From the NCBI GenBank assembly GCA_034678405.1, contig JAXDBW010000042.1, positions 136 to 64,135 on the forward strand: a stretch of 64,000 bases of DNA, read 5' to 3'. The notes beneath the pieces were generated by a model. The model had not been told where the DNA came from. It worked only from the letters and a program-made list of their open reading frames with translations, and did not search any database. The position numbers were made by a program, and so were the translations under genes. Positions 4,609 through 45,695 of this stretch are shown here, piece by piece (the first letter of the stretch is position 1; every line of letters begins with the position of its first letter). Source of the DNA: Patescibacteria group bacterium. GTDB taxonomy: Bacteria > Patescibacteriota > Patescibacteriia > UBA10025 > JAHIVO01.

Positions 4609-5967
4609 TCACTCGACCAGGGGAAGATTCGAGGGTAATGCTTCACTGGTGTCGAGATTGAAACGCCGCACGAGAATGTGCTGGGCGGTAGCGAGCTTTT
4701 CTGCATACTCAAAGCAACTGTCGAGCTCATCCGCACTGATAATCTCGCTGAGCGGTTTATTTGCCGGCTCAAAGACCGACGTCCACAGCACATCGCGAAA
4801 CGGCGTCCGTGTATCCATGGCCTGAAACGCACACTTCTGCACGAAACGATACACATCGTCGTTTTCGTATCCGTACCGACCGAGCAACGACTTGACGTTC
4901 TCGGACGCCCAGCAGCCATTGGTCCGATCAATGTTTTGCGCCATCCGAGCAGCGTTGACCTCGAGATTCTCGACTACCCATGTCATTTTGTCGAGCATGT
5001 AGTCAAGCAGGATGGTCGCATCCGGCAGGCAAATCCGCTCAACGCTCGAATGACAGATGTCCCGCTCATCCCAGGTGCGAATTAGCTCCTGACCCATGGC
5101 CGCGTATCCCCGGAGTGCAATCGCCTGGCCGCAAATACGCTCCAGGATGATGGTGTTGCGCTTGTGAGGCATCGCTGATGAGCCCTTCTGCCCCTGCTTG
5201 CGAGGCTCACGATACTCCCCGTAGGCAGTGGTAGCATGGATTCGCATATCAGTCGCAAACTTCTCGAGTATGCCACCGATAATGCTGACGACCGCGAGAA
5301 AATTCGCGATATTATCCCGGAGTGTAATCTGACCATTCGCCGGCCGCACTTCCAGACCCAGAATTGCCAGAACTCGACTCTCGAGATCCGGTGAAATATT
5401 CATCCAGTTGCCCATGGCACCGGAGAATTTCACCCGCTGTACACGAGCGACAGCCGCCCGCAGCAGCTCCCGGGCCGAGATAACCGCATCCAGAAACACG
5501 CAGAACGTGTGAATCAGTACGTCGGGCTCGCCGTCCTGACCATGGGTGGTCCCCATCTTATAGATCCGATACGACTTACCCGCTCGACGGCGCAGTGCTA
5601 CTTCCAGTTTCTCCAGATCATCATCCAGCACATTGCCGACGTCACGCAGGATTAAGCCGAGCGCCGGCTCTTCCGTATCGTAGGACGTCATTTCCTCGTG
5701 CAGGTAGTGCTGGAATTCTGCCGGAATCAGACTGCTGATGTACATCAGGAAAGCCAGCAGATCGTGCTCGATCCGTTTGTCGATTTCATTGATTGCATCA
5801 GCGTTGATGGTAATCTTCTCCGGATATTTCATTAAGACAATATCCGGATACTTCTTCGTCTCCACCTTGGCCCTGATAGCCGCGCGTTCGACGTCATACC
5901 ATCGGCCAAACTTCGCTTCATCAGTCCAGAGACCGGACATGATAATTCGTGAGTAACGTTTCAACAT
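4609..5967 (-). CDS. purB: Adenylosuccinate lyase
   Basis: Fumarate-lyase signature GSSAMPHKRNT, and an N-terminus MLKRYSR like the PurB start MIERYSRPEM. GGAGG lies 7 nt upstream of the ATG at 5967. The ORF could start at 5997 instead. Confidence 0.9.
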   Translation of the reverse strand: MLKRYSRIIMSGLWTDEAKFGRWYDVERAAIRAKVETKKYPDIVLMKYPEKITINADAINEIDKRIEHDLLAFLMYISSLIPAEFQHYLHEEMTSYDTEEPALGLILRDVGNVLDDDLEKLEVALRRRAGKSYRIYKMGTTHGQDGEPDVLIHTFCVFLDAVISARELLRAAVARVQRVKFSGAMGNWMNISPDLESRVLAILGLEVRPANGQITLRDNIANFLAVVSIIGGILEKFATDMRIHATTAYGEYREPRKQGQKGSSAMPHKRNTIILERICGQAIALRGYAAMGQELIRTWDERDICHSSVERICLPDATILLDYMLDKMTWVVENLEVNAARMAQNIDRTNGCWASENVKSLLGRYGYENDDVYRFVQKCAFQAMDTRTPFRDVLWTSVFEPANKPLSEIISADELDSCFEYAEKLATAQHILVRRFNLDTSEALPSNLPLVE

Positions 5968-28624: not shown

Positions 28625-29746
28625 CTACGACTGATTGAGCTCCTCGAGGAGCTGCTTTTGTTTACGCGAAAGCTTCGTCGGTGTCACCACCTGGACGGTC
28701 ACGAGATGGTCTCCTCGTCCGCGAGTGCGTAAATGAGGCACCCCTTTTTCTGATAGTTTAAACACTTTGCCTGACTGTGTGCCAGCGGGCACCTTCAGCA
28801 TGACTTCACCATCCAGGGTTTCCACAGGGATCTTGTCCCCGAGGGCGGCCTGGCTAAATGAGAGCTCGGCAGTCGAGCGAATATCATCGCCGTCTCGGTC
28901 AAACTGCGGATCTGGCTGGACTCGGACGGTGATATAGAGATCCCCCGCCTGACTACCCCGCACACCGACTTCGCCTTTGCCCGACAACCGAATTGTTTCG
29001 CCGTCGCTGATGCCAGCGGGAATTTTCACTCGGACCGTTTCTTCTTCTTTTACCCGGCCCTCGCCGTTACATTTTGTACATTTCTTCTCGGGCTTCTTCC
29101 CCTCCCCATGACAATCCGGACAAATGCTGGCCGTGCGAAACTGGCCGAGAATCGTCTGCTGGACCCGGGCGACTTGGCCCTGTCCCCCGCAGGTCTGGCA
29201 CGTCTCTATCTTCGTGCCCGGCTCAGCGCCATTTCCGCCACACTTCAAGCAGGCGACGTGGGTATAGAGCGAGATGTCTGTCTCGGCGCCGAAGACCGCC
29301 TCGCGAAACGGTAGCTGCATATCCATCTGGATGTCCTGGCCCGACGTCCGGGCACTCCGCCCACCGCTGCGGCGGCCGAAACCGAAAATATCCCCGAAGA
29401 TATCACCAAAATCACCGAAGTCATACTCAACTCGCTGACCCTGTCCCTGACCACCACCAAATGGTCCTCCCGCGCCACCAGCGGCACGGGCAAAGTCCTC
29501 CCAATTAAACCCCTGACCACGGGCACCGGCTTGCTGCTCATAGCCGGGACCAAACTGATCATAGCGCTGCCGGCGCTCAGCATTGCCGAGCACCTGGTAG
29601 GCACCGTTAATTTCCTTAAACTTCGCTTCGTCTCCATCCGGTTTGTCCGGGTGGTATTTGTGCGCGAGCTTGCGGTAGGCCTTCTTTATTTCGTCTGCCG
29701 AGGCGTCTTTCGCGACACCCAGAATCTCATATAAATCTTTTGACAT
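28625..29746 (-). CDS. dnaJ: Molecular chaperone DnaJ
   Basis: J-domain (YEILGV...HPD), G/F-rich linker, and four CxxCxGxG zinc-finger repeats. Confidence 0.95.
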
Positions 29747-31405: not shown

Positions 31406-31708
31406 TTACGCCGTCCGAAATCCGATTTCCGAACCAGGCGCCTGCGCTTCCTCGATCTTACCAAATTTGTCTTCGTACTTCTTGATATTTTCCTCGAGCG
31501 CCTTATAGATGCGTTTCATATGTCCGGGGCTGGTAATCACCCGGGCATTCACCACGCCGGCTCGCTGATGCGCGTAGACATTCATAAAGTCGAGGACAAA
31601 CTCCTCCTTCGAGTGTGAGACGCCCATCGCGTTTGAATACACGCCTTTCAGGGTCGCGTCATCAATCTTGATATTGATTTGCTGTTGATTATTCTGCTGG
31701 CCATTCAT
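31406..31708 (-). CDS. DUF3467-family protein
   Basis: GVYSNAMGVSHSKEEFVLDF...RVITSPGHMKRIYKALEENIKKYEDKFGKI matches the DUF3467 consensus (GIYSNLA..HS..EFVLDF ... P.HAKRL..AL..NI.KYE..FG.I). Confidence 0.75.
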   Translation of the reverse strand: MNGQQNNQQQINIKIDDATLKGVYSNAMGVSHSKEEFVLDFMNVYAHQRAGVVNARVITSPGHMKRIYKALEENIKKYEDKFGKIEEAQAPGSEIGFRTA

Positions 31709-31835
31709 ACAGTCAGATATATTACTAATAATATCTGTATCATAGCGAGCGACGGAGTATTTGACAAATCGGGCAATTCGCCAGTAGGCTGAAGGTAGAC
31801 ATTGCTCGTATCAATCTCAAACAGTGAGGTGACAT

Positions 31836-32154
31836 ATGCCACATCGATTACCTATAGCGCGCATTGTGTTCCAGCGACGACGCATCATGATCCGGGCTGG
31901 CGCCCGCCGCTTCTCTATCCACACCGGTGGGGTACACCGGATACGCTTCAGCTCGCATGACGAGCCGCAGCACGTCCGCCTCGGACCGCATCATCGCACG
32001 GTGCATCTCCACGCGCCGATCGTCCATGCCATCCACTGCTGAGCCACAAATCACCAGTAGCCGGTCTGTGTCTGGCTACGGCTACCCGACGGGGCCGCTT
32101 GGTTCCTCCACCGCCTGAGCTCTTCTCCACATTTGGAGCTCAGGCGATTTTTTT
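31836..32154 (+). other. GC-rich, apparently non-coding segment ending in a strong intrinsic terminator. Possible ncRNA of unknown class.
   Basis: The only ORFs are Arg/His-rich and appear on both strands, which is typical of spurious translation of GC-rich RNA. Terminator GCCTGAGCTC...GAGCTCAGGC plus T7 at 32113-32154. Confidence 0.3.
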
Positions 32155-32255
32155 ATCCATCGAAAATCATTGACAGGGGCCATGGGGGCACGGTATGGTA
32201 ACTATGTAAATACATACAGCCCTTCACACCCCAAAAAAAATAAGGGAGGTATCCC

Positions 32256-32660
32256 ATGACAGGAGGTATGTCGGCGGCAGATGCCACAGACCGTGCTCAG
32301 CTGAGCATTGATTTTACGCTGCCCACCTTCAGTATCGACGACCACGGCGTCAGCCCATCCGTGAATGATGGTGTCATCATCAATCACATCGAGCTGACGG
32401 AATTCGATGAACTCGCGATTCATGTCGCATCCCATCACATCACCGCATCCCCCGCCACTACGGTTTCGCTATCCGAGATACTCGATGGTACCGTCATTAT
32501 CCGCGCCACGGATGACCGTGATGAGCTCATCCTCTGCAATGCGGATGATTACAGCGGTTCGAAATTCCTCGCCATCCATCAGAGTACTCTGCAGACTATC
32601 GGCGCGCATTTCGGCGTCAATCCCGAGACTATTCTCTCCATCTGTCCCGCTCCGTCATAA
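32256..32660 (+). CDS. Hypothetical protein
   Basis: AAGGGAGG RBS 7 nt upstream of the ATG. 134 aa. Confidence 0.5.
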   Translation: MTGGMSAADATDRAQLSIDFTLPTFSIDDHGVSPSVNDGVIINHIELTEFDELAIHVASHHITASPATTVSLSEILDGTVIIRATDDRDELILCNADDYSGSKFLAIHQSTLQTIGAHFGVNPETILSICPAPS

Positions 32661-32801
32661 GCACGCCGTGCTACTCCCCTACGCACATAATCCACGGCCC
32701 GTCTCAACCATATAGTATGAGCGGGCCTTTGCTATTGACAAAGTACGATACTCATGATAGAATCGCACATTACTACTGTATATGAAACCAAGGAGGTATT
32801 C

Positions 32802-33056
32802 ATGAATCGGTACGCTCTCCTCGTAGTAATTCTCGCTCTTTCGATCTTGCTGCTGTTCGTAACCACGGTCACCGGACCCTTTGGAAAAAACGCACTGGCC
32901 AACTGTATCAATCAGTTGTCCTATGTGGTCAATGATTTTGGTTACGTCGCAGAAAGTGTTGATGGCCGCAATGCAGTCATCAAAATCATCGCGCTCCTGG
33001 CCGCGATCACATCACTGCTCTGCATCATCGTATCAAAACCGCAGGGATCGCACTAA
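32802..33056 (+). CDS. Small membrane protein (2 TM)
   Basis: AAGGAGG RBS with the ATG at 32802, and a terminator directly after the stop. Confidence 0.55.
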   Translation: MNRYALLVVILALSILLLFVTTVTGPFGKNALANCINQLSYVVNDFGYVAESVDGRNAVIKIIALLAAITSLLCIIVSKPQGSH

Positions 33057-33058
33057 CC

Positions 33059-33100
33059 AGCAGGCACTCATCGGACGAGCGCCTGCTTTGATTTTTATTT
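33059..33100 (+). terminator. Rho-independent terminator
   Basis: AGCAGGC...GCCTGCT followed by TTTGATTTTTATTT. Confidence 0.7.
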
Positions 33101-33177
33101 GACGCGAGTAACTGAGATGGGGTAGGCTGGATCTGAAATTCGGTCGTCTGACACTACGGCCGAGCTTCATGCTCTAT

Positions 33178-33229
33178 CCCCCCGCGTATCCACTTCTGTC
33201 TGGTTGATGGGTACGCGGGGACTTTTTTT
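33178..33229 (+). terminator. Rho-independent terminator (second in the series)
   Basis: CCCCCGCGTA...TACGCGGGG followed by ACTTTTTTT. Confidence 0.6.
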
Positions 33230-33345
33230 AGCCCAACTTGACAGCGACATAGAACTGCGCTACGCTAGTTTCTCACATATAGATCATTCTTTCGGATTTA
33301 CATAAAAGCCCCCCTCTGAGCCTTTTCAGGCTCAGCCCTGCGTGT

Positions 33346-33400
33346 AGTGGGACCGTGCAGACAGCATTTCCGGATGCTCGAGCGGTCCCACTCTTTTTTA
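33346..33400 (+). terminator. Rho-independent terminator (third in the series)
   Basis: AGTGGGACCG...CGGTCCCACT followed by CTTTTTT. Confidence 0.6.
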
Positions 33401-33404
33401 TATA

Positions 33405-33433
33405 TTGACGAAGAAACGGCGTCGTGCTACTAT
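33405..33433 (+). promoter_or_regulatory. Sigma70-like promoter for the 33531 operon
   Basis: TTGACG, a 17-nt spacer, then TACTAT. It lies about 95 nt upstream of the GTG start. Confidence 0.5.
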
Positions 33434-33530
33434 CGGTAGTTCCGATGTATATATGCATCGGGTTTTCAACACACGCAAAAGCGAACATTTGACATAACCA
33501 ACAAACCCAAACCAATACGGAGGTACATTC

Positions 33531-34544
33531 GTGAAACGATTCAGTATTATGGTGTTATTGCTCGTACCACTGGTGCTCTCGCAGCGCCTCTCCGCCGCCC
33601 CCGATTCGATCAAGGTCACCTTTGACCGTAATGAAGGTATGGCGGCCTGGGACCGGATCGTCCGCATCCAGGGAGATGCCATCGCAGCTATGGTCGGCAG
33701 TCAACTGGCGGACTCAACCAGTATCATTACCGTCATATCAAATGCTGACGGCGTCCAATACCGGACGAATCATCAGAAACAGAATACGGTCATGACTGAG
33801 GAACGGGCCGTCACCGCGACCACCCTGCTCGAGTACTACTGTGCCGATCTCAGCCGAGTTCGCGTCGTGCCGCTCATGAATCAGGCGGACACCGGATCAG
33901 AATATCGGTACATCATTTTCAAGTATGCGAGTCACCGGCCGGGCACGTCAGCGATAGAACCGTTTGGGGGCTCGCGAGAAGCAGTTCGTGAACATGAACG
34001 ACGGTCAGACATAGCGCCGATCCGTCCCACGCCTCCCGTGTCGACTCCCCCGGCCAAATCAACTCCTGATACGTGCTGCACGTATACCGCATTGTGGCTG
34101 GGCACTGGACTCAACTACAGCCCCTTGGAAAAAGTGCTGCCGCACATCCAGGCTGAATGGGGTACAGAGCGACTGCGGTTGATAGCGGCGGTCAGCTATT
34201 CAGTCTACCAGGAGGATAAAAACTTCGCTGGAGACGAGCTACAGGTAAGCTATCGCTCAGTAGCCGGCGGTATTGCCTGGCAGGCAGTACCACACAGCCA
34301 GTTTGACCTGGTGGCGCTCTGGCAACGAAACGAGGAGTATGCCGTCGACTACGGCCGCTACGCCCGCAAGCTGGAAGGGCCGGCCATCGGTATACGACTA
34401 CAACTGACCGACTATCTGGAGATGACCGGTCTGTGGACCCCCAGCGAGGAACAGGTACGCGGCCGCGACGAAGTCGTCTGGGATACCGGTAAGATGTACC
34501 TCGGCCTGTCCGCGTTCATTCGTTTGACAGGAGGTGACCGATGA
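33531..34544 (+). CDS. Secreted protein, possibly with an OmpA-like N-terminal region and a beta-rich C-terminal half
   Basis: GTG start, and a signal peptide MKRFSIMVLLLVPLVLSQRLSAA. The C-terminal half has an alternating hydrophobic pattern. The OmpA assignment is weak. Confidence 0.5.
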   Translation: MKRFSIMVLLLVPLVLSQRLSAAPDSIKVTFDRNEGMAAWDRIVRIQGDAIAAMVGSQLADSTSIITVISNADGVQYRTNHQKQNTVMTEERAVTATTLLEYYCADLSRVRVVPLMNQADTGSEYRYIIFKYASHRPGTSAIEPFGGSREAVREHERRSDIAPIRPTPPVSTPPAKSTPDTCCTYTALWLGTGLNYSPLEKVLPHIQAEWGTERLRLIAAVSYSVYQEDKNFAGDELQVSYRSVAGGIAWQAVPHSQFDLVALWQRNEEYAVDYGRYARKLEGPAIGIRLQLTDYLEMTGLWTPSEEQVRGRDEVVWDTGKMYLGLSAFIRLTGGDR

Positions 34545-35107
34545 AACGTGTAGCATTCCTCTGCTGCCTGGCTGTCCTGGGCATGCTCATCAGCTGCGCT
34601 GAGAAGTTGCCGACGCCGACATCGCCCGATGTCGACACCCTCTATGTCGACGATACGACTACAATCTACGACTCGACCACGACGGCCGATACGCTGATTG
34701 ACACGATCTATATCGATGACACGCTCGTCATCTATGATACGACGATTATCGTGGACACCGTCGGGACTGACACCGTGACGGTCGTGGACACGATCTACAT
34801 CGACTCTACTACCACCGAGCCGTACTGCGGTACGCTCGATAGTAAATCGAAGCAGATCAAGTGGTTTGTCCCGCTCGAGCCGGGCCTGTATACCTTCCGT
34901 TTCTTCGGCTCGACTGACCGAGACAAACCCGAACAGCAGCTGACGGTCACGATCGGTAACACTCCCTGCGAATGGCCGATCGCCAGCCAACCGGAGCTGA
35001 CGCTCACCTTCACTGCTACATCTAGCCGCTGGGTCGTCATCACGGCTAATCCGCCGCCCGCCCGTGGGCACGCGATTCAGATCTGTCTCGAGATCCAGAA
35101 AACATAA
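34541..35107 (+). CDS. Lipoprotein with tandem D-T-I-Y-I-D-D-T-type repeats
   Basis: Lipobox LISC. The start overlaps the upstream stop (ATGA). Imperfect 21-24-nt coding repeats at 34621-34810. Confidence 0.6.
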   Translation: MKRVAFLCCLAVLGMLISCAEKLPTPTSPDVDTLYVDDTTTIYDSTTTADTLIDTIYIDDTLVIYDTTIIVDTVGTDTVTVVDTIYIDSTTTEPYCGTLDSKSKQIKWFVPLEPGLYTFRFFGSTDRDKPEQQLTVTIGNTPCEWPIASQPELTLTFTATSSRWVVITANPPPARGHAIQICLEIQKT

Positions 35108-35131
35108 CATTGCTCATACACACCCATTACC

Positions 35132-35162
35132 CAGGGGAGGCACCGCCTTCCCTGTTTTTTTA
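35132..35162 (+). terminator. Rho-independent terminator
   Basis: CAGGGGAGG-CACCG-CCTTCCCTG followed by TTTTTTTATT. Confidence 0.7.
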
Positions 35163-35241
35163 TTAACCCTCTTGACATAAGCGACTCAAATAGCGCAGGA
35201 TGGAGAAAAGCGCTCATCAAATGCAGCACGTGGAGGCAAGG

Positions 35242-35382
35242 ATGCCTGATATACTCAAGGTTCTGATCGCGTTTGTGATCGTGGCAGTGGTTGCGGTAGC
35301 CGGATGCGGCGGATTCTTCACCTATATTATCTACTCCGGCAATCGTAAAAATAGCCGTGAAGCAAATAAATCCGAACTATAG
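35242..35382 (+). CDS. Small single-TM protein (46 aa)
   Basis: GGAGG 8 nt upstream of the ATG at 35242, and a terminator downstream. Confidence 0.4.
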   Translation: MPDILKVLIAFVIVAVVAVAGCGGFFTYIIYSGNRKNSREANKSEL

Positions 35383-35433
35383 GTTCGACCGCCCGGTCCT
35401 CGGATATAATCGAGGACGTAGTACCATCGAAAC

Positions 35434-35471
35434 AGCCGCTGTGGGTTCTACTCCCAGAGCGGCTTTTTTTA
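35434..35471 (+). terminator. Rho-independent terminator
   Basis: AGCCGCT...AGCGGCT followed by TTTTTTTAT. Confidence 0.7.
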
Positions 35472-35480
35472 TATAAGATG

Positions 35481-35517
35481 AAAAAACTCGGCCTACTGAT
35501 ATACATCAATAGGCCGA
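35481..35517 (-). terminator. Rho-independent terminator for the minus-strand gene 35544-35867
   Basis: Minus strand: TCGGCCTATTGATGTATATCAGTAGGCCGA followed by GTTTTTTC. Confidence 0.6.
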
Positions 35518-35543
35518 TACTCAGATTTCCACAGCTGGCCCGA

Positions 35544-35867
35544 TCAGGCCGGCGGCTGCCAGGTGAGCTTGGCCAGGCGAGCCGCCTGGACGAGCTGCTG
35601 ATACGGGGTAAGCAGTCCGTACCAGCTTCCCTGGGTCTTCTTCAACGACGTGCGTGCGTCATCGATCTGTTTCCAGATACTGACGATCAGGTCGGTCGTC
35701 ACCGTCTGGCCGTTGCTGGTCAGAGCCTGCAGCATCTTCACCGCGATGTCGTGCTGCTCCCGCTCCTGAAGCACGAGATTCTCCTTGGCGAACCGCACGC
35801 TGAGGAATTCCTTAATCGGGATGAGTGCATGGATGGCCTCACCCAGCGTCAGTTTCATTTTCGGCAT
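35544..35867 (-). CDS. Hypothetical protein
   Basis: 107 aa ORF with a terminator downstream. Confidence 0.45.
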   Translation of the reverse strand: MPKMKLTLGEAIHALIPIKEFLSVRFAKENLVLQEREQHDIAVKMLQALTSNGQTVTTDLIVSIWKQIDDARTSLKKTQGSWYGLLTPYQQLVQAARLAKLTWQPPA

Positions 35868-36001
35868 GGTCTGTGTCCTTTCTGCCGTATAGGGGTTTGG
35901 TGATAGTAAGGGCTATGTTATATGACAGGCCAGTATATGCTAAAACCGACCAGCCGTCAAGGACTTGGGTGGTATAGATGAAAAAATATACTGCTCTACT
36001 C

Positions 36002-36445
36002 CTATTTGCTAACCCCTTGCCAAAAGTCCCGGCTCTCTCCCGCATAATATACCAGAGCGGCGGCGAGCGACTGTGCGCTGACTCCTATCGATGAGTGCTG
36101 CGGCGGCAGATATACCATATGGCTCCCGCGCAGATAGCAGCCGGTCGAGCTCCACTGCATCGTATTAACTGATAGCGTTTCATCAAATACCGGACAGTGC
36201 GCCTGCCTGATATGATCTATCTGCTCACACACGAGCACGTAGCCCGCTGGATCATTGCTTTTGATTTTTTTCAATATCGAACGGATCTCATCATCACTCG
36301 TCCCAGCAATGCTCCCACTGATATCAATCACGCAACGATGCCCGATATCCACATACCCAGTCATCGCCCGCCAGCCAAGCCATGCTCCGCCGCAGACGAG
36401 AACAATAACAATCAACCATATGCCTCGAAATATTATTCGTTTCAT
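36002..36445 (-). CDS. Hypothetical membrane-anchored protein (paralog of 36442-36915)
   Basis: N-terminal TM segment. It shares the motif Y(A/V)(F/L)VC(Q/E)(R/Q)(V/I) with its neighbour. Confidence 0.45.
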   Translation of the reverse strand: MKRIIFRGIWLIVIVLVCGGAWLGWRAMTGYVDIGHRCVIDISGSIAGTSDDEIRSILKKIKSNDPAGYVLVCEQIDHIRQAHCPVFDETLSVNTMQWSSTGCYLRGSHMVYLPPQHSSIGVSAQSLAAALVYYAGESRDFWQGVSK

Positions 36446-36915
36446 GGGGCCAATGGATTATAGTGATCGGAAATCAAGTGCATACTCGCAAAACCACGCG
36501 CATAGCACTCCTGCTCATCATATGATCGCGACTCCTCAAACTGCGACACATGGCATGATTCATGCACAATAATACTGCTCGTCCAGAGGACGTCTTTATT
36601 CGACGTTGATATGTCAATCCGCTTACCCGATTCACCGTTTGACGGCGGACGAAAACAGCCGCCCCACACAGTGCCGCCACATGCGAAATTGGGATTGATG
36701 TAGTGCACCCGCTGGCACACAAATGCGTAGTTTTCCGGATCGCCATATTTTAGCAGGTGCAGCCCTTGCTTAACCGTCGCATTATTAAACTCGAGTATCG
36801 AGGGTGCGATGAAAATACGACACGACGCGCCGGAGTCTATATACACATACTGCCACCAGATAAACCCTCCGATGACTACCAGGGCAATGCTGATGTTGCG
36901 TAGCTTATGACTCAT
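36442..36915 (-). CDS. Membrane-anchored HExxH protein (SprT-like putative zinc metallopeptidase)
   Basis: IIVHESCHVSQFEE. The H-E-x-C-H motif is reminiscent of the SprT/WLM families. N-terminal TM segment. Confidence 0.45.
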   Translation of the reverse strand: MSHKLRNISIALVVIGGFIWWQYVYIDSGASCRIFIAPSILEFNNATVKQGLHLLKYGDPENYAFVCQRVHYINPNFACGGTVWGGCFRPPSNGESGKRIDISTSNKDVLWTSSIIVHESCHVSQFEESRSYDEQECYARGFASMHLISDHYNPLAP

Positions 36916-37369
36916 GAGATGTCAGTTGTTGACGAAGTTGGCTATACCCCTTCTCTGCAGCCCACCGACTGTACTCCACGAGTGCTATCGTGCACAGCAC
37001 CAGCGTATAGTACAGCGCCCCGTACACCAAATAGCTGACTGCGGCGAGTAGATACGCAAGTACCATGAATTGATACCAGTACATCCAGGGGGTCAGTATA
37101 CCTGCGCTTATGCGCAGATCTCGGCGCAGCCGCTGCGATTGCTGAAACTTGAATTCGCCGATCATGGCCGGGATGATGAACGCGGCCATCATGATACCGA
37201 CCGCGACGATGCTGGCGGTAGCACCAATATGACGCGAAATCCAATTGCCAATATGCTCACCCTGACCCCATATCGCTGCCAACGCATAAATAGAAATCCT
37301 CCGCATATGTGCTGCATACACGGCGGTACTATGCATGTTATCAAGCTGAATAATAGTCTGATTCCCCAT
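36905..37369 (-). CDS. Hypothetical integral membrane protein
   Basis: 154 aa with about 4 TM segments. Confidence 0.45.
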   Translation of the reverse strand: MGNQTIIQLDNMHSTAVYAAHMRRISIYALAAIWGQGEHIGNWISRHIGATASIVAVGIMMAAFIIPAMIGEFKFQQSQRLRRDLRISAGILTPWMYWYQFMVLAYLLAAVSYLVYGALYYTLVLCTIALVEYSRWAAEKGYSQLRQQLTSHES

Positions 37370-37386
37370 AAAAAGACAAGTCTCTT

Positions 37387-38025
37387 TTACCAGCGCGTAT
37401 GGTCGGCGATATACTGCACCACCCGCGTCATTTCCTCAGTATGACCGCTGCCCGGACTAGTAGCGTTGATCATAAATACAGCGCCTTTCGTATCTGGGGG
37501 AGCCGCATAGATACGAGCCCGATAGGCGTCCGCGTACTCGGACTCCACATAAAATGTCTCAAACGTACCCTCCACGCCATCGACCGTATAGGGCTCTGAC
37601 TGGAGGTCCGTTTTGGTGATATGCGCCGTACCTTGCTGATCTTCTCCCTGGAGCATGAGGTCGCCGGCTAGATATATCGTAACGGTGATACAGTCATCCC
37701 GTTTGAGCAGATCTAGGATCGAGGCCTCTGCGCAGGCTTCACTATTTGCGACCTGGAAACCGCGTGTCCCCGAAACTGAACTGTTGATATCCTGACGCAT
37801 CACGTAGTCCTCGGGATAGGCGGTCCGGTAACCCACATCTTCGAGCCGGACTTCGTGCTCGTCCCGCAGGCCGACCGTCACCAGCGCATCATCAATGACA
37901 GAAGTGCTGGTATAGAGATAATACCCTCCCCCGCCGACGATAAGCAGGATAATAATAATCCAGCGCACGACGTGGTGCGAGGACGTGACTCCCGGATACT
38001 GATCGATATCGACGGGCTCGGTCAT
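37387..38025 (-). CDS. Hypothetical membrane-anchored protein
   Basis: 212 aa with an N-terminal TM segment (WIIIILLIVGGGGYYLY). Confidence 0.45.
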   Translation of the reverse strand: MTEPVDIDQYPGVTSSHHVVRWIIIILLIVGGGGYYLYTSTSVIDDALVTVGLRDEHEVRLEDVGYRTAYPEDYVMRQDINSSVSGTRGFQVANSEACAEASILDLLKRDDCITVTIYLAGDLMLQGEDQQGTAHITKTDLQSEPYTVDGVEGTFETFYVESEYADAYRARIYAAPPDTKGAVFMINATSPGSGHTEEMTRVVQYIADHTRW

Positions 38026-38162
38026 ATTAGTTGCGTGTTATTTTTGGTATTAATAGTATCTATATACAGTATACCACACTGTCGCCCCGCAGCACCTCGG
38101 TAAAAAACCACCCGCCTCGCTGGAGGGAAAAGGCGGGTGTGGATTATGGCTGACGGGTGGCG

Positions 38163-38498
38163 CTACGGCCGCCGGTCAGACAAATCAGGTGACCAAATCG
38201 CCTTCGCGACGGTCACAGCGAACTTCAGCCGTTTGAAGGTCGGGAATGCCTTGATCCATTCCTCGTCCATCTGCTGCAGCTGCTCGTCTGCCTGTTCGAC
38301 CGCTTCGAGCACCTGGCTGATCACCTCGGGCGTCGGTTTCTCGCCGAGATTGACCGTCAGGTTGAAAAGCCTGACCGCGATATATGTCTGCTGCTCCTCG
38401 CTGAGCCCATACCGCTCGGCCCACCGCTCCTGCACCTGGGTGCGAACTGCCAGCATATGCTGGAATCCTGTACTAATATCAAACCGTACTTTCAGCAT
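38163..38498 (-). CDS. Hypothetical protein
   Basis: AAAGGAGAC RBS upstream of the ATG at 38498 (MLKVRFDISTG...). The ORF track start at 38594 lacks an RBS. Confidence 0.45.
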   Translation of the reverse strand: MLKVRFDISTGFQHMLAVRTQVQERWAERYGLSEEQQTYIAVRLFNLTVNLGEKPTPEVISQVLEAVEQADEQLQQMDEEWIKAFPTFKRLKFAVTVAKAIWSPDLSDRRP

Positions 38499-38747
38499 AA
38501 AAAGTCTCCTTTCAGACCTTTTCGGGGTTGAAGTGTTTTCAACGTTCTCTATTGTATTGTTTCCTCCAGCAGTAGAGTATAAAGTACAAATCATACTCCG
38601 TCAACCCCCAGCACCTCCTGACCACCCTCTTGTCATCCTGAAGGAATGTAATGACTGAAGGATATAACTATATCCTTCAAAAGTATCAGTAAAATATGCT
38701 AGACTTATGAGAGGAGGGCTTGGTATTGAGATTAATGAATATAATCC

Positions 38748-40001
38748 ATGTCTATCGAATCCAGTCCTGATGCTGGTGAAATTATAGCAAACGAAACGGT
38801 AGCAGAATTTGAACCAGCGCCTGCGCCTGAACAAGTCGAAAACCAGCAGGAGTTTGTCGACATTACTGATATCCCAGAAAATAACAACGACCTGCTGCAG
38901 GCTATCGAGGCGGAAAATCAAAATGAAGCGCTCGATTATTTCGAAACGCGGCGGAAACTAGAGAGTTTGGATGAAACACAAGTCGAGCGGATGTGGGCTG
39001 AGGTCGGAGATAGGCTGAAAGAAAACGGCATTTTCACCAATCATGCCGAGGAAGGCATCGATGTGTTTAGCAGAAAAAGTGAATGGACTTCCCCCTATCC
39101 GGTCAATCGCCTCAGTCAGGAAGAAATCCATGCAAATTTCAAAAAGAAATATGCTAATATCTCCGGATTTTATGAAGGTGGTGTTGTATTTATAAATGAA
39201 GCTGCTAATGCAAAACGGCAAACGCCCGCCCGAGAGAACTTAGCTTCGCTGGCTGCGGGGTATGGGCTGGGCGAAGAAACAGATACATTCATTCATGAAA
39301 TATACCATGGCTTCCAAGATTTAGATCCGGAGGAAGTCAAAAAATATCAAGAAGAAGTACGCCGTATCACCGATCAAATAAAAGCTATTGAAATAGAAGC
39401 ACAGATAAAAGGTCAGTACGGATACGAAGCCATCCCCTTGCGCGGCCAGCTGATCAGAATGAGAGAGGCGCTGATGGGAACGCGAAAAGACCGTTCATCT
39501 CATACCGACGATCAATTAGCTGATGATGCGATTGCACAAGAAATGCACGCACACATGTTCTCTGACCCCACGCGGTATAGGGGCAAGATAGAATCCTATA
39601 CCGAGGAGGGAGTGGTCAATGCCTATATGGAGATGCCGATACGCAGGGTATATGAAAAAATGATTGGGACCAGGAGAGATACTGAGGATACAGAAAGAAC
39701 CTATAGATATGACTATATGAAAGGTAAAGAAGATCAAGCGTTCATGGCGTTTCAGCAGATCGAAGGATTGCGGGCGCTTGGCATGAATAATTTAGAAATT
39801 GGGCGGATCATAGCTGAAGATGAATATGACAGTGAACAGGGGTACTACAAAAAATTACAAGAAGCAATATTTCAGCAACGAGAGAAACTCGGCATCGACC
39901 GAGACCAGCATCTGAAGATTGTAAAACGTTTTCGGCTGGATACCATTCATAAGGCACTCCAGGCCAGAAATATTGTGGGAAACGCGGTACGTACTATCTG
40001 A
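38748..40001 (+). CDS. Hypothetical acidic protein with an HExxH motif (low-GC island)
   Basis: 417 aa with FIHEIYHGFQDLDPEE. Local GC is about 35-40% against a background near 52%. Confidence 0.5.
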   Translation: MSIESSPDAGEIIANETVAEFEPAPAPEQVENQQEFVDITDIPENNNDLLQAIEAENQNEALDYFETRRKLESLDETQVERMWAEVGDRLKENGIFTNHAEEGIDVFSRKSEWTSPYPVNRLSQEEIHANFKKKYANISGFYEGGVVFINEAANAKRQTPARENLASLAAGYGLGEETDTFIHEIYHGFQDLDPEEVKKYQEEVRRITDQIKAIEIEAQIKGQYGYEAIPLRGQLIRMREALMGTRKDRSSHTDDQLADDAIAQEMHAHMFSDPTRYRGKIESYTEEGVVNAYMEMPIRRVYEKMIGTRRDTEDTERTYRYDYMKGKEDQAFMAFQQIEGLRALGMNNLEIGRIIAEDEYDSEQGYYKKLQEAIFQQREKLGIDRDQHLKIVKRFRLDTIHKALQARNIVGNAVRTI

Positions 40002-40017
40002 TACCTCCTATCATACT

Positions 40018-40371
40018 ATGCCACACATCATCCAATATAGATGCGAAAATTACGAAAAGTGTCACTTTGGAATAATTGACACTGGCCCAACCATGAACGT
40101 TAGATTGGAAGATGGCACTATAGAAAAACTGCCACATCCATCTGAGGAAGCGAGAGCTCTGGCAGTAACTGGCAAGAGCCTAGGTGAATTAGCAGAAGAA
40201 AAAAGAATTTTTTACCAAGAGAGCAAATTTTGCACCAGATGTCTGAAGGTGGCGGAGGAATGCGTGTGTCAGGATACAGCTGCGCATATACCGATGTCAG
40301 AGCTAGAGGGCAAAAAATGTTTCGTGTGTAAAACGGGAATTATAAAAAAGAGCGCGGTCGGCATGTCGTGA
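40018..40371 (+). CDS. Cys-rich small protein (multiple CxxC pairs)
   Basis: CENYEKCH ... CTRCLKVAEECVC ... CFVCK. Start is uncertain (ORF track gives 39973), and there is no clear RBS. Confidence 0.35.
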   Translation: MPHIIQYRCENYEKCHFGIIDTGPTMNVRLEDGTIEKLPHPSEEARALAVTGKSLGELAEEKRIFYQESKFCTRCLKVAEECVCQDTAAHIPMSELEGKKCFVCKTGIIKKSAVGMS

Positions 40372-40405
40372 GCGCACCACCCTCTAGCCGTCCTGAATAA
40401 AAACA

Positions 40406-40526
40406 TTGTCATCCTGAACCCGAAGGTCCTGATGGAAATCAGGATCTCAAAAAAATCCACAGTGGATTGTTTGAGATTCCGGGTCCCCGTAGAGTGACGG
40501 GGCAGGCAAGCCCGGAATGACAATCG
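40406..40526. repeat. Two adjacent copies, in opposite orientation, of the TTGTCATyCyGA...GGATCTC hairpin repeat family
   Basis: TTGTCATCCTGAACCCGAAGGTCCTGATGGAAATCAGGATCTC (40406-40448). The reverse complement of 40473-40526 is TTGTCATTCCGGGC...CCCGGAATCTC. Confidence 0.7.
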
Positions 40527-40530
40527 TTTT

Positions 40531-40989
40531 TTAGGATACCTTCAAAACCTCCGCCAGTATCGGATGCGAGAAATACGCCAGCACGTCGAAATCAGGGTCG
40601 GATAGCTCCATCATCTCCATCCCCGGCCGCTCAATGATCTGATACCCTGGCTTGCCGAGATACTTACGCTTAAACGCTGGATAATCACTCAACGTAAAAT
40701 CCGCATCGCCCCTCTCTGGCCGGTCCGCGGCTGGTTTGCGTACTTTCACTATCTTCAATGGATCGGCTACCGTTTCAATCGGCTCGGCTAGCAAATACAC
40801 ATTCCCCATCTTCGTCTCCTGCACGACTCTGCCCATTTCCCCGACGGCCGTATCCATCTGCTGATACTCCGCCTCTGACTGCGCGAAAATGCACGCGTAA
40901 TTCACCGGCACGCCTTTTGCATCGGTGTGCTTGTCTTTTAATCGCTCGGCGTCCCGGACGATGGATTGAATTATGCTGATTACATTCAT
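40531..40989 (-). CDS. Hypothetical protein
   Basis: 152 aa ORF with normal host GC. Confidence 0.45.
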   Translation of the reverse strand: MNVISIIQSIVRDAERLKDKHTDAKGVPVNYACIFAQSEAEYQQMDTAVGEMGRVVQETKMGNVYLLAEPIETVADPLKIVKVRKPAADRPERGDADFTLSDYPAFKRKYLGKPGYQIIERPGMEMMELSDPDFDVLAYFSHPILAEVLKVS

Positions 40990-41408
40990 GACATTTTCTT
41001 AATCTTCTTCGTTACCGCGTCCTGAAATATGCGAAATGCTTTGCGTTTCTCCTTCGGATAGATATAGGGAATACCCAGCACGAAACCACACGATCTACAC
41101 TTCAGCGGGCCAATACTTGCCAAGTCCTTCTTCTGTAAATCAACCAACCGCTCTGGACTCATGATCCGGTCCATATACAACCGTCGTAGGTTCCCCGGGC
41201 CATCTTTTTGATAAACTAGTACCGCTGCCCCACACTGCTGACACGAAATATCCAGCAGCCGTGAATATCCTCCCCGAGCGCTTTTGTATTTGTCTCGCTT
41301 GAGTGTGAGTTGTTTCTTTTTCATGCGATTAGTATACCAAAAATCTCCGCTCCCCGCCTGTTGGGGGTGGTTTTGGGGCATTTTACTACCGCGTGGATTC
41401 CTCCACAC
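40986..41408 (-). CDS. Zinc-ribbon protein
   Basis: CQQCG...CRSCG. The start may be the internal MKKKQLTLKR at 41324. Confidence 0.4.
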   Translation of the reverse strand: MWRNPRGSKMPQNHPQQAGSGDFWYTNRMKKKQLTLKRDKYKSARGGYSRLLDISCQQCGAAVLVYQKDGPGNLRRLYMDRIMSPERLVDLQKKDLASIGPLKCRSCGFVLGIPYIYPKEKRKAFRIFQDAVTKKIKKMS

Positions 41409-42300
41409 CCCTAATAAGAGTCTCGAGGTGTGATTTCAAATTATCCTGGCTTAAAATAACTATCTCAAGGGTTTTTTCGCGTTTAGTGCGTCTTGGAGGG
41501 AGTCGATTGGAGTATTTTCTCCAAAATTTCTCTCGCAGCGGATACTCATAAATTACAGAACCCACATCTTTACATGACCACGCCTCTTGATTAATCACCT
41601 GACCATCAGCAAGCAACTCATCGTTTATTGAACAGAATTGCATCTGATTATTTGTAATAAGTAGTGGATGAAAAAGTAATTTATTGACGGAGCCAGATCT
41701 TACTTTTTCGTTTTCCTCAATGATCCATTTTGTATATTGATCGACAAAGAAGCGTTGTGCTAAAGATACCTGATGACATGCCTTGAATATTGGTTCATTT
41801 GAAGTTAAAAAATATTGATCCTTGTCGTCTTTCTTCAGCACATAGCCCTGTTCCGCATAACTATATGCATTCGTTAAAAGAAATACGTTGCTGGACAATT
41901 CATAGCTTTTTGAAGGAGGGGCGAGATCCCCACCACGATTTCCAGGATCATCAATTACCTTTATACATTCCATACTATAGGGAACCTCCTCCTCACCAAA
42001 AAAGACCCAAGAGGCGGTGTTCTTTTTTCTGTACTCCTCAATATTACTAGGATTATGATACTTACACTCAATAATTAAAAAAACTATGTAATCGTTAATT
42101 ACCTTACTGGCAATTATATCAACGGCCGAATCATCAGTATCTTTATATCTAAAATCACTTGCACCAGATACTGGAAATTCAATATCAGAAATTTCAAAGC
42201 CGTACTTTGACAGTAAAATCTGAGACTTCTTCTGAAATGAAATCCCAGAATTGCTAATCGCCTCTATTTGTCCCTGTTCCATTTCTCCAACATAATTCAC
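41386..42300 (-). CDS. PD-(D/E)xK nuclease-like protein (restriction-endonuclease-like fold), low GC
   Basis: 304 aa at about 33% GC. DIIASKVINDYIVFLIIECKY fits a D...(E/D)xK core. There is no adjacent methyltransferase. Confidence 0.4.
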   Translation of the reverse strand: MNYVGEMEQGQIEAISNSGISFQKKSQILLSKYGFEISDIEFPVSGASDFRYKDTDDSAVDIIASKVINDYIVFLIIECKYHNPSNIEEYRKKNTASWVFFGEEEVPYSMECIKVIDDPGNRGGDLAPPSKSYELSSNVFLLTNAYSYAEQGYVLKKDDKDQYFLTSNEPIFKACHQVSLAQRFFVDQYTKWIIEENEKVRSGSVNKLLFHPLLITNNQMQFCSINDELLADGQVINQEAWSCKDVGSVIYEYPLREKFWRKYSNRLPPRRTKREKTLEIVILSQDNLKSHLETLIRGVEESTR

Positions 42301-42351
42301 TTATGTACACAGTATACACCAAAAGAGCCCCTTGCGGGGCTCTTGGAGATA

Positions 42352-44283
42352 TTACTTCTTGTCTTCCTTTTTGACGTCCTCGTACTCTGCTTCGACGGGA
42401 CCGTCTTTCTTATCGTCCTTCTGCTCGGCTCCGGGCTGTGCGCCGGGTTGGCCCTGGGGACCACCCTGTCCGGGCTGACCCTTTTGGTCGCCGTACATGG
42501 CCTGGCCGATCTTCTGGACGGTTTGATTCAGATCTTCGACTGCTTTCTTGATGGCGTCGACATCATCCTTATCCTTCACCTCGTTGACTGCCTTCACCTT
42601 CTCTTCGATTTCTTTCTTCACGTCATCCTTGACCTTGTCCCCGGCATCTTTGAGTGCCTTCTCGGCGGTGTAGGTCAGGGTCTCGGCCTGGTTACGGATT
42701 TCGATCAGTTCTTTCTTCTTCGTATCTTCTGCTTCGTGTGCCTGCGCGTCCTGTTTCATCTTCTCTACTTCTTCCTTGGATAATCCAGAAGAGGCAGTGA
42801 TAGTGATGGATTGCTCCTTGCCAGAGGCTTTGTCTTTGGCTTTCACATTCAGGATACCATTGGCATCAATGTCGAATGACACCTCTACCTGCGGGACGCC
42901 GCGTGGTGACGGCGGGATACCGGAGAGGATGAAGCGACCGAGGGTCTTATTATCCGTGGCCATGGGGCGTTCGCCCTGCAGCACGTGAACCTCGACTGAC
43001 GTCTGGTTATCAGCGGCAGTAGAGAAGACCTGCGATTTGCTGGTCGGGATAGTGGTGTTACGTTCGATTAACGGCGTGGAGACACCACCGAGGGTTTCGA
43101 TACCGAGAGTTAATGGAGTGACGTCGAGTAAGAGTACGTCCTTCACATCACCCTGCAGCACGCCAGCCTGGACCGCGGCGCCCATGGCGACCACTTCGTC
43201 CGGGTTTACACCCACGTGGGGTTTCTTGCCAAAATATTTCTCGACGACTTCGAGCACCTTCGGCATGCGGGTCATACCACCCACCATGATCACCTCTTCG
43301 ATGTCCTTGGCTTCCATTTTCGCATCCTCGAGGGCTTTCTTCAGGGGTTCGATGGTTTTCTCGATGAGGTCCTCGACGAGTGATTCCAGTTTCGCCCGAG
43401 TGAGTTTCAGGTTCATGTGTTTCGGACCAGATGAGTCAGTGGTGATAAACGGCAGGTTGACCTCTGTCTCAGTCGTGGTAGAGAGTTCGATCTTGGCTTT
43501 CTCCGCGGCTTCTTTCAGACGCTGGAGGGCCATCTGATCCTTGGACAGGTCGATACCCTGGTCCTTGGTAAATTCCTCTACCAGCCAGTCGATAATGCGT
43601 TTGTCAAAATCATCACCACCGAGGTGAGTATCACCGTTGGTGGATTTCACTTCCACGGTGTCCTCAGAGATGTCCAGGATAGAGATATCAAACGTACCGC
43701 CACCCAAGTCATAGACCGCGACTTGCTGGTTTTTCTTCTTATCAAATCCATAGGCCAGCGCAGCTGCCGTGGGTTCGTTGATGATACGCTTGACCTTCAG
43801 CCCTGCGATTTCACCAGCGTCCTTCGTGGCCTGCCGCTGTGAGTCATCGAAATACGCCGGCACGGTAATGACAGCTTCTTCGATCTTCTCACCGATTTTG
43901 GCTTCGGCGTCGGATTTCAGCTTCTGGAGGATCATGGCGGAGACTTCCTGCGGGGTGTAGAGATTGTCACCCATCTTTACCTTCACGCCCTGACCAGCCT
44001 GCTCGATCTTGTACGGCATGGTTTTCACATCATGCTGCACTTCGTCGTCATCCCAGTGGCGGCCGATGAGGCGTTTCACTGAGAAGACGGTGTTTTCCGG
44101 ATTGGTGACCGCTTGGCGTTTGGCGACTTGGCCGACGAGGCGTTCGCCAGTCTTACTGATCGCCACCATTGACGGAGTCGTCCGGTTGCCTTCTTTGTTT
44201 TCGATCACTTTCGGTTCGCCACCTTCCACGATTGCCATGGCTGAGTTGGTCGTACCGAGATCGATTCCGAGAATCTTTGACAT
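42352..44283 (-). CDS. dnaK: Molecular chaperone DnaK (Hsp70)
   Basis: [18 protein letters not shown], and a C-terminal lid with the acidic tail [10 protein letters not shown]. Confidence 0.98.
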
Positions 44284-44348
44284 AGTGTTATTCGTTAATC
44301 CTTTCTAAATTGGTTAGGTTAATATTTCCGTGTCACTCTGAACCCGTT

Positions 44349-44432
44349 CGCTTTCACTCAGGGCATGCTCAGTGAAGAGTCTCCTAGCCATTACATGGCT
44401 AGGGGTTCCTTCGCTTCGCTCAGGATGACAAT
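44349..44432. repeat. Hairpin repeat family copies upstream of dnaK
   Basis: 44408-44432 reverse complement is TTGTCATCCTGAGCGAAGCGAAGG. 44349-44379 is a related GCATGC-centred palindrome. Confidence 0.6.
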
Positions 44433-44441
44433 GTGCATTGG

Positions 44442-44801
44442 TTAATTAAGAAAATTATCTGTTTTCTCCAGGGCTTCATGGATAGCCAGGACGTCTTCGC
44501 CCCGTACCCGTTCACCATCCTGGAATCTAAGTACTTCATGCCGCTCGAGGTCAGTCAGGGTACTGGCTACTTTCAGACCCTGCTGCGACATAGAGATGAG
44601 GGACATGGCCGCACTCTGGCAGGTGGTGCATTTGATATACATCAGGGTCGCACCGTCTTCCTCCTGGATGACGTCGATTTTATTGAAGTCGTACATGCTG
44701 CGGCAGACCGGGCAGCGGGCGTCTATTTTGATCCGCTCCGGGCGGCCACCCTGCTGGTCATTGCCGAAATTGCTGTTGAAATTGTTATTGATTGCGCTCA
44801 T
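44442..44801 (-). CDS. Zinc-ribbon protein inside the heat-shock cluster
   Basis: 119 aa with CPVCRS ... CTTCQS. It is co-directional between hsp20 and dnaK. Confidence 0.45.
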   Translation of the reverse strand: MSAINNNFNSNFGNDQQGGRPERIKIDARCPVCRSMYDFNKIDVIQEEDGATLMYIKCTTCQSAAMSLISMSQQGLKVASTLTDLERHEVLRFQDGERVRGEDVLAIHEALEKTDNFLN

Positions 44802-44835
44802 GTATTGTATTGGGTAATGGGTTATCCCTCACCGA

Positions 44836-44949
44836 TTGTCATCCCGAGCAACGCCGAGGGATCTCTGTGAATGGCTGCCGCGTCGGGTAACCGAGATGCT
44901 TCGGCTTCGTCGCGTATATCTACGCGACTTCGCTCAGCATGACAAGCGT
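44836..44949. repeat. Hairpin repeat family copies
   Basis: TTGTCATCCCGAGCAACGCCGAGGGATCTC (44836-44865). The reverse complement of 44926-44949 is CGCTTGTCATGCTGAGCGAAGTCG. Confidence 0.65.
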
Positions 44950-45537: not shown

Positions 45538-45695
45538 TCATCCCGAACTTGTCTCGGGATCTAATTGGTCATTGTATGATTCAACCGTTTTGTCATTCTG
45601 AAGGAGCGACGAGCGACTGAAGAATCTCTATGACTTTTTACTTAGCTCATGAAGATTCTTCGACTCCACTTCGTTTCGCTCAGAATGACAAAGGG
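45538..45695. repeat. Three copies of the hairpin repeat family between grpE and hsp20
   Basis: CTCATCCCGAACTTGTCTCGGGATCT (45538-45563), TTGTCATTCTGAAGGAGCGACGAGCGACTGAAGAATCTC (45590-45628), and the reverse complement of 45670-45695, CCTTTGTCATTCTGAGCGAAACGAAG. Confidence 0.7.

Follow-up and report, generated by a model that had tools for sequence, protein, structure and literature searches.

Does the AT-rich sequence beside the heat-shock gene dnaK of a Patescibacteria bacterium represent one acquired defence island, or does it bring together genes of separate origin? We addressed this question in a 64-kb window (the whole stretch of DNA analysed, 64,000 nt) from a member of the Patescibacteria (candidate phyla radiation, CPR; GenBank assembly GCA_034678405.1, contig JAXDBW010000042.1), a group with tiny genomes, few clustered regularly interspaced short palindromic repeat (CRISPR) systems and poorly charted immunity. 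The original prediction, made from the letters of the DNA, placed a horizontally acquired defence or addiction island at 38.6-42.3 kb, upstream of dnaK, in which an HExxH protein and Cys-rich and zinc-ribbon proteins would be accessories of a PD-(D/E)xK nuclease-like protein. Our analysis leads to a different picture, which we regard as probable without being secure: the 3.7 kb in question would combine a foreign cassette carrying a stand-alone nuclease effector (gene E), lodged in a hot spot after dnaK, with two resident genes (D and C) and a separate two-gene module (A-B). Most of the proposed island would then be native sequence or an unrelated module.

Gene order and composition downstream of dnaK

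On the minus strand of the window the gene order is hrcA, grpE, hsp20, a gene for a 119-aa CxxC protein, dnaK, E, D and C; A and B are on the plus strand, convergent to the dnaK-E-D-C series. With respect to transcription, genes E, D and C are downstream of dnaK, and not upstream as had been proposed. The order dnaK-E-D-C is identical in three independent assemblies from different sequencing runs, so it is not a chimera or other assembly artefact. The genes are as follows:

42352-44283, minus strand: dnaK, 643 aa, HSP70; the conserved anchor, with the variable slot on its 3′ flank
41386-42282, minus strand: gene E, a predicted 298-aa PD-(D/E)xK nuclease of a rare, unannotated family, with candidate catalytic residues D55, E72 and K74
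40986-41324, minus strand: gene D, a native, widely conserved 112-aa Patescibacteria zinc-ribbon protein, outside the island
40531-40989, minus strand: gene C, a 152-aa protein of native-like composition whose start overlaps the D stop by 4 nt; missing from the original prediction
38748-40001, plus strand: gene A, a 417-aa protein with an invariant HE.YHGFQD, whose predicted fold matches no solved structure
40018-40371, plus strand: gene B, 117 aa with eight invariant Cys residues; an A homologue always lies directly upstream

The mean GC content of the window (fraction of G and C) is 0.510, with a standard deviation of 0.044 among 400-nt windows, and GC at third codon positions (GC3) averages 0.589 (standard deviation 0.075) across 66 open reading frames (ORFs). 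The trough that had been reported at 41386-42300 is real, at 0.36-0.38 in 400-nt windows; the 33-40% GC claimed for 38748-40371 was measured as a moderately low 0.43-0.47. Values for the individual genes, with codon-usage z-scores over 55 genes, are:

gene E: GC 0.376, GC3 0.348, z -2.6
gene B: GC 0.439, GC3 0.436, z -2.6
gene A: GC 0.451, GC3 0.440, z -1.6
gene D: GC 0.480, GC3 0.525, z -1.1
gene C: GC 0.525, GC3 0.647, z -0.8

E has the lowest GC and GC3 among the 66 ORFs, and B and E have the two most atypical codon usages among the 55 genes; the composition of C and D is inside the normal spread, so that the expected codon-usage anomaly holds for part of the region only. The anomaly consists of one strong 1-kb trough (E) and a mild 1.6-kb dip (A-B), with ordinary genes between. 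Elsewhere in the window, a 1235-aa ORF (57368-61075, minus strand; GC 0.447, GC3 0.431, z -2.2; no Pfam match) is a second gene of atypical composition, its GC being about as low as that of A-B.

A single-gene cassette directly after dnaK

The DnaK of the window is 80-82% identical to those of Patescibacteria/Kerfeldbacteria-type genomes and 89% identical to that of its closest relative, GCA_049325535.1 (locus L099). Nucleotide homology between the window and L099 extends from hrcA through dnaK, ends at 42351, one base beyond the dnaK stop codon, and restarts at 41294, within gene D. Because the right flank, TTTTTGGTA...TACTAATCGCATG, is common to both loci, the cassette can be delimited to 41344-42351. 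In L099 the place of E is taken by a 198-aa HEPN gene (GC 0.317) and an inositol-monophosphatase-family gene. E thus has the properties of a genomic islet: its composition is atypical, it is absent at this locus in close relatives, as the original prediction had asked of the island, and other cargo occupies the site. Horizontal acquisition is upheld for E by its composition and its absence from the dnaK loci of close relatives; for D and C, which are native-like and syntenic, it is not.

The cassette holds little besides E, with about 30 nt of non-coding sequence 5′ and about 40 nt 3′ of the gene. Its borders and local signals are:

41344-42351, minus strand: the island proper, 1.0 kb with a single gene, inserted after the dnaK stop codon and ahead of the shared TTTTTGGTATACTAATCGCATG
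42320-42343, minus strand: terminator-like hairpin read by eye directly after dnaK, AGAGCCCC GCAA GGGGCTCT then TTTT; not listed by a consensus terminator scan
42311-42324, minus strand: left copy of a direct repeat that brackets E, TTTTGGTGTATACT
41331-41342, minus strand: right copy of this repeat, just upstream of D, TTTTGGTATACT

Between the hairpin and E there is a TATACT box, followed by a GGAG ribosome-binding site 5-6 nt ahead of the ATG at 42282, from which E is read. The direct repeat, TTTTGGT(G)TATACT (42324-42311 and 41342-41331), has a local alignment score of 9, a score equalled in 2.2% of shuffles, and is only suggestive. The sequence GGTATACTAATCGCATG (window 41322-41343) precedes gene D in the window and the inositol-monophosphatase-family gene in L099 (about 5070-5203); the window seems to have lost the latter gene, whose promoter and start region are now fused to D.

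Gene E encodes a member of a rare nuclease-like family

The nuclease-like protein of the original prediction is present, at 298 aa from ATG 42282 and not at 304 aa: an exact look-up found the 298-aa form on record and not the 304-aa form from a GTG start. A word-indexed search of 5.8 billion proteins returned E itself and a single 26%-identical protein, and an exhaustive HMMER scan of 1.84 billion representatives returned 16 family members, all of about 300 aa. Their identity to E is 26-32% in the HMMER matches and 20-26% in a MAFFT alignment, and pairwise identity within the 16 sequences is 16-38%. Ten columns are invariant (P37, D55, E72, K74, F94, A168, Q171, A175, P206 and T210).

An AlphaFold2 model of E built on the family alignment (pTM 0.81) has a helix at 13-26, strands at 30-37, 53-62 and 65-74, a second helix and a strand from residue 90. 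Both the core fold of the PD-(D/E)xK group (helix, three strands, helix, strand) and its conserved D...(D/E)xK are found, so that the predicted nuclease core withstood structural modelling; as modelled, the core is a Hjc/NucS-like PD-(D/E)xK fold. Strand 2 opens with D55 and strand 3 carries E72-x-K74, which is the canonical layout, so that these residues probably bind Mg2+ and cut DNA. Beyond the core, the model shows a long beta-hairpin inserted at about 90-151 and, at about 200-298, a C-terminal domain.

Annotation databases offered little. Nothing above threshold was obtained from Pfam, PADLOC, PHROGs or NCBIfam for the five ORFs A-E and their neighbours, and the search with defence-system models that had been proposed found no PADLOC model matching A, B, C, D or E. 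Sequence and profile searches of the PDB with E, A, B, C and D gave no informative match, and tblastn of E, the family member P0002 and A against phage or plasmid records gave none. No nuclease or defence family in Pfam matches any member of the E family; the sole significant Pfam matches fall in the N-terminal extension of a single member and are of ChaC type. P0026 is an E-family nuclease with an N-terminal ChaC/gamma-glutamyl-cyclotransferase domain (Pfam E = 4.5e-24).

As predicted, no methyltransferase domain occurs in any of the five ORFs of 38.6-42.3 kb. E does not conform to an orphan type II restriction endonuclease, as there is neither an adjacent methyltransferase nor a match to a restriction endonuclease family, and Pfam and PADLOC show no Mrr_cat, McrBC or SRA-type match that would make it a type IV enzyme. 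Since E has no methyltransferase or partner gene and carries its own ribosome-binding site, we read it as a stand-alone effector. It would act against foreign DNA without protection of the host by methylation, and its cleavage could be structure-specific or resemble that of type IV systems, an analogy that we consider possible.

The gap after dnaK varies among relatives

Other cargo follows dnaK in related genomes, where the first gene of the slot is:

L019: 394-aa TIR protein; GC 0.375 against 0.533 for dnaK; PADLOC PDC-S66, E = 4e-54, also matching ThsB
L017: 414-aa Schlafen/AlbA_2 protein; GC 0.336 against 0.584 for dnaK
L020: S-adenosylmethionine (SAM) methyltransferase; GC 0.355 against 0.456 for dnaK
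L062: HEPN protein; low GC
L025: DUF559 endonuclease; low GC
L031: NYN/YacP RNase; GC not flagged as low
L061: PemK/MazF toxin; GC not flagged as low
L036: 23S-rRNA-IVP protein; low GC
L027: GDSL hydrolase; low GC
L029: TPR protein; low GC

dnaK is followed directly by dnaJ in about 30 loci. Low-GC genes, defined as lying at least 10 GC points below the median of their locus, stand first after dnaK in 6 of 69 loci; at all other positions they number 8 among 801 genes (odds ratio 9.4, Fisher p = 3.6e-4). Direct evidence for replacement of cargo between related genomes comes from L019 and L096, which are 91% identical in nucleotide sequence at the dnaK 3′ end and 80% identical in gene C, with nothing similar in between; in L019 the TIR gene is followed by a C homologue 62% identical to that of the window.

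From these observations we propose that the ancestral order was dnaK then dnaJ and that the gap after dnaK became a hot spot of gene turnover in this lineage, where single AT-rich genes coding for nuclease, NADase or RNase-toxin domains would be exchanged; the cassette at 41344-42351 would be one such foreign gene, inserted directly after the dnaK stop codon. As the cassette of the window neither contains nor adjoins an integrase, homologous recombination between the conserved flanks would be the likely route of exchange. From fold, composition and neighbourhood we infer a defence function for E.

Several points weigh against this reading. The cassette has no integrase, transposase, att site or clear target duplication, and its 12-14 nt repeat is weak (p ~0.02). 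The hot-spot survey took one locus per species and used crude ORF calls, and some slot genes (the GDSL hydrolase, the TPR protein and the SAM methyltransferase) are not defence-like. PADLOC-DB 2.0 returned no match for E or for P0002, P0015, P0016, P0019 and P0024, and a lone nuclease such as E has no evident means of self-protection. Finally, the occurrence of three E-family members at one site, described below, could mean long residence with fast divergence, or homing.

In the window itself dnaJ (28625-29746) is 12.6 kb away from dnaK. The distance from dnaK to the conserved 100-aa gene that precedes dnaJ (31409-42351) is 10.7 kb, compared with 0.9-4.6 kb in relatives, and no ORF of this interval except C and D has a homologue in the relatives' loci; the whole interval therefore behaves as a plasticity zone. 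It includes a 157-aa protein (36442-36915, minus strand) with an N-terminal membrane helix and a HESCH (HExxH) motif, which matches no family and adjoins a paralogue-like ORF of similar size (36002-36445).

E-family members recur 3′ of dnaK

Three E-family members, 24-28% identical, occupy the same slot 3′ of dnaK, in the window, in L096 and in L103. The best homologue of E, P0015 (26% identical; GC 0.308), is found in L096, where the order is the tail of dnaK, a 146-aa ORF, P0015, a C homologue and an IS200-type (Y1) transposase. P0016 (24% identical to E; GC 0.372 against about 0.54 in the flanks) is on the 1-kb contig L103. The first 51 nt of that contig encode a DnaK C-terminus, the P0016 start codon overlaps the stop of dnaK (ATGA), and the sequence 3′ of P0016 encodes the conserved 100-aa protein found ahead of dnaJ in relatives. 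A profile search of 80 species-representative dnaK loci found no E-family member. P0002, of another, distant E subfamily, is away from dnaK and adjoins a PLD-SNF2 helicase, an MmeI-type methyltransferase and an OLD-family/UvrD pair. Contigs with P0016, P0024, P0019 and P0021 are about 1-1.6 kb long; P0019 adjoins a gene that looks AlbA_2-like, recognised by eye from its translation, the neighbour seen on L105. These contexts, with three members in the slot and another subfamily elsewhere, keep readings based on homing and on coupling to heat shock alive and do not fit a housekeeping role.

PD-(D/E)xK homing endonucleases exist, and E-family genes could be site-specific selfish elements of this free-standing kind, which would cut dnaK 3′ regions lacking E and be copied in by repair with no benefit to the host. 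The three divergent members immediately 3′ of dnaK, each AT-rich in a GC-richer host and each a single gene without a partner, together with the minimal cassette in the window, speak for such an element. Homing by E, however, cannot explain the unrelated non-DNase cargo of the slot (TIR, HEPN, MazF and Schlafen proteins); the other E subfamily resides away from dnaK, by helicase, methyltransferase and OLD genes; and the absence of the family from the 80 representative loci indicates that its spread is weak. We judge homing unlikely, though worth keeping in view.

The position of the slot also raises the question of whether the slot genes, E among them, have a functional tie to the heat-shock operon, as stress-induced effectors expressed with, or controlled by, DnaK/HrcA. 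In favour of this, most listed slot genes are on the dnaK strand at gaps of tens to a few hundred nt, and in L103 the start codon overlaps the dnaK stop; in addition, the chaperone DnaJ is reported to act as a phage sensor for bNACHT25 (PMC12169576). Set against this are the strong terminator-like hairpin between dnaK and E in the window and the heterogeneity of the slot cargo, and we consider a functional tie of this sort decidedly improbable. In a more specific version, the site would be a single-gene immune slot wired to the heat-shock operon and the E family a chaperone-coupled defence nuclease specific to it. Proteotoxic stress in infection would then drive whichever effector is present, be it a PD-(D/E)xK, TIR, HEPN, Schlafen or MazF protein, via read-through or via translational coupling as at the ATGA of L103. 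This, too, appears quite unlikely to us.

A Hjc/NucS-like core could also belong to a housekeeping repair or recombination nuclease (a Hjc-like resolvase or a NucS-like enzyme) that is AT-rich by chance. E is absent from the closest relative and from the 80 relatives' dnaK loci, and its family numbers only 16 representatives in 1.84 billion proteins. Its composition is foreign, and it is twice the size of Hjc, with extra domains; a housekeeping role is very improbable.

Genes D and C are resident and A-B is an independent module

The zinc-ribbon protein of the original prediction exists, at 112 aa and not 140. Gene D has 333 homologues across the Patescibacteria (60-77% identity), and because all of these are 108-114 aa long, its true start is the ATG at 41324; a D homologue is also downstream of dnaK in L099. 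Gene C has 62%-identical homologues after the slot gene in both L019 and L096. Neither C nor D matches a family or, by sequence, a solved structure, and both are resident genes. A role of C as partner of the slot gene was considered and set aside: C has native-like GC and is missing in L099, L017 and L103, so that no functional link between C and the slot cargo is seen.

The 417-aa HEIYH protein encoded by gene A was found as described at 38748-40001, and the CxxC-rich protein encoded by gene B was correctly recognised, at 117 aa rather than 118. Gene A has 11 homologues (39-71% identical), in which E265 and H267 are conserved besides HE.YHGFQD; B homologues are 56-69% identical and begin about 16-20 nt behind A. 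B follows A in six of the six module copies with downstream sequence (window, L013, two in L014, L101), L015 and L102 being re-samplings of one of L014's two A-B copies. The contexts elsewhere are unrelated to dnaK: in L013 the pair comes after def-fmt, and one other genome carries two copies 6 kb apart. In all other genomes seen, A-B occurs without E, D, C or dnaK. Since its GC is host-like in those other, low-GC hosts, the mild dip in a 51%-GC genome fits acquisition from a lower-GC relative, which is the probable origin of the module in the window.

Direct repeats flank A-B in the window:

38621-38642, plus strand: upstream copy of a 22-nt direct repeat, 19/22 identical to 40376-40397
40376-40397, plus strand: downstream copy, 5 nt beyond the B stop

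This repeat scores 13, against a shuffle maximum of 12. In L013 the pair is flanked by a 46-nt repeat (39/46 identical) whose upstream copy is the 3′ end of fmt. In L014 (110-8164; also L015 and L102), seven copies of a 73-nt repeat lie on one strand, each a hairpin with GGGGTCCCTACCG..TTATTTTAACTAATT behind it, and separate single genes or gene pairs, both A-B copies included; the neighbours mostly encode membrane or secreted proteins. On the parent contig, two recombinase genes, one for a large serine recombinase and one for a tyrosine recombinase, follow at about 8-10 kb from the second A-B copy, on its downstream side. An integron-like array in L014 with A-B as one of its cassettes was considered; this idea is weakened, as the 73-nt repeat separates every gene there and so says little about A-B.

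Gene A has no significant family match and no zincin among its fold hits; the only hint is a sub-threshold Reprolysin_3 match ending at HExxH. A metagenome scan for A gave only two loci, and none of its family was found in viral contigs. Although A and B are adjacent and always co-occur, they show no match to a toxin-antitoxin family, and A, at 417 aa, is large for a toxin. Tentatively, they may be a zinc-dependent hydrolase and a zinc-ribbon partner or regulator. A resembles the HExxH zincins (ImmA/IrrE M78, DUF4157 and reprolysin-like proteins) in having a small beta-sheet and then a helix that bears the invariant HExxH, but the similarity rests on the motif, and its obligate 8-Cys partner gene sets it apart.

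These findings bear directly on the proposal of one acquired defence or addiction island at 38.6-42.3 kb with the HExxH, Cys-rich and zinc-ribbon proteins as nuclease accessories. In its favour, none of the five ORFs is annotated, and A, B and E all have below-average GC3. Yet D is kept in hundreds of Patescibacteria without E, C is native-like in composition and syntenic in relatives, and A-B, on the opposite strand and beyond C, is elsewhere independent of the other three genes; nor do the hairpin repeats bound the region (see below). One island is largely refuted, and we regard it as extremely improbable.

Hairpin elements belong to the heat-shock locus

The TTGTCAT...GATCTC hairpin repeats that were said to bound the island are real: the motif TTGTCATYCYGA has nine matches in the window, against 1.4 expected, eight of them within 38.6-45.7 kb. 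As delimiters they fail, one element lying in the middle of the proposed island and another beyond dnaK. The heat-shock locus holds at least four such elements:

40403-40526, no strand assigned: closed by TTGTCATCCTGA...CCGGAATGACAA, in the gap between B and C; z = -4.65; not an island border
44330-44434: in the gap between dnaK and Zn119 (the gene for the 119-aa CxxC protein), beyond dnaK
44833-44948: in the gap between Zn119 and hsp20
45587-45694: in the gap between hsp20 and grpE

Each of the four (about 105-125 nt) has an inverted stem, TTGTCATYCTGA...TCAGRATGACAA, around an unrelated interior, and all fold closed (z -3.9 to -6.9). They fill nearly all intergenic gaps of the hrcA-grpE-hsp20-dnaK locus and so are not island delimiters. 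A half-site is present at 38630-38641, and the same motif occurs near heat-shock genes in L062 (five copies), L019, L096 and L099. A sequence that runs unbroken in the window is split by one such element in L099, and this presence/absence polymorphism suggests mobility like that of miniature inverted-repeat transposable elements (MITEs). Terminal inverted repeats, multiple copies and the polymorphism are all as in MITE or repetitive extragenic palindromic (REP)-like elements; the interiors are unrelated and the family is loose. No Rfam family matches the elements.

The 119-aa protein between hsp20 and dnaK (44442-44801, minus strand) has two CxxC pairs and is kept at the same position in L016-L019 (61-63% identity), with a 128-aa ORF there in L099. 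It seems to belong to the heat-shock operon of Patescibacteria as an uncharacterised component.

Relation to known systems

Two things are new here, both modest but useful. The first is the E family, a predicted nuclease family without a model in Pfam, PADLOC, PHROGs or NCBIfam and seen three times in the slot. The second is the slot itself, a variable site that recurs after dnaK in Patescibacteria and shows an enrichment of defence and toxin genes; the literature searched yielded no account of a hot spot linked to dnaK in this group. A slot right after dnaK is easy to locate, and its collection of AT-rich single-gene effectors gives a handle for finding defence and toxin genes in this group.

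By its modelled core, E is closest in kind to small PD-(D/E)xK nucleases, namely the archaeal Holliday-junction resolvases Hjc and Hje and the NucS/AF1548/YraN group. It differs from these in its length of 298 aa, its inserted beta-hairpin, its C-terminal domain and its lack of a Pfam match, and it is sporadic, AT-rich and located in a variable slot, unlike a core repair gene. Stand-alone PD-(D/E)xK nucleases in defence are known from type IV enzymes (Mrr, McrC), Shedu SduA and the nuclease domains of Can2/Card1; E has no PADLOC match to any of them and carries no CARF/SAVED sensor, GTPase partner or recognisable modification-reading domain.

Defence hot spots with core genes on either side have reportedly been described in E. 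coli, Pseudomonas and Vibrio. The slot after dnaK resembles them in being a fixed site whose cargo differs among close relatives and is enriched in immune and toxin genes. It differs from them in usually holding one small gene, without an integrase or mobile-element backbone, and in its anchor, the dnaK-dnaJ gap of Patescibacteria.

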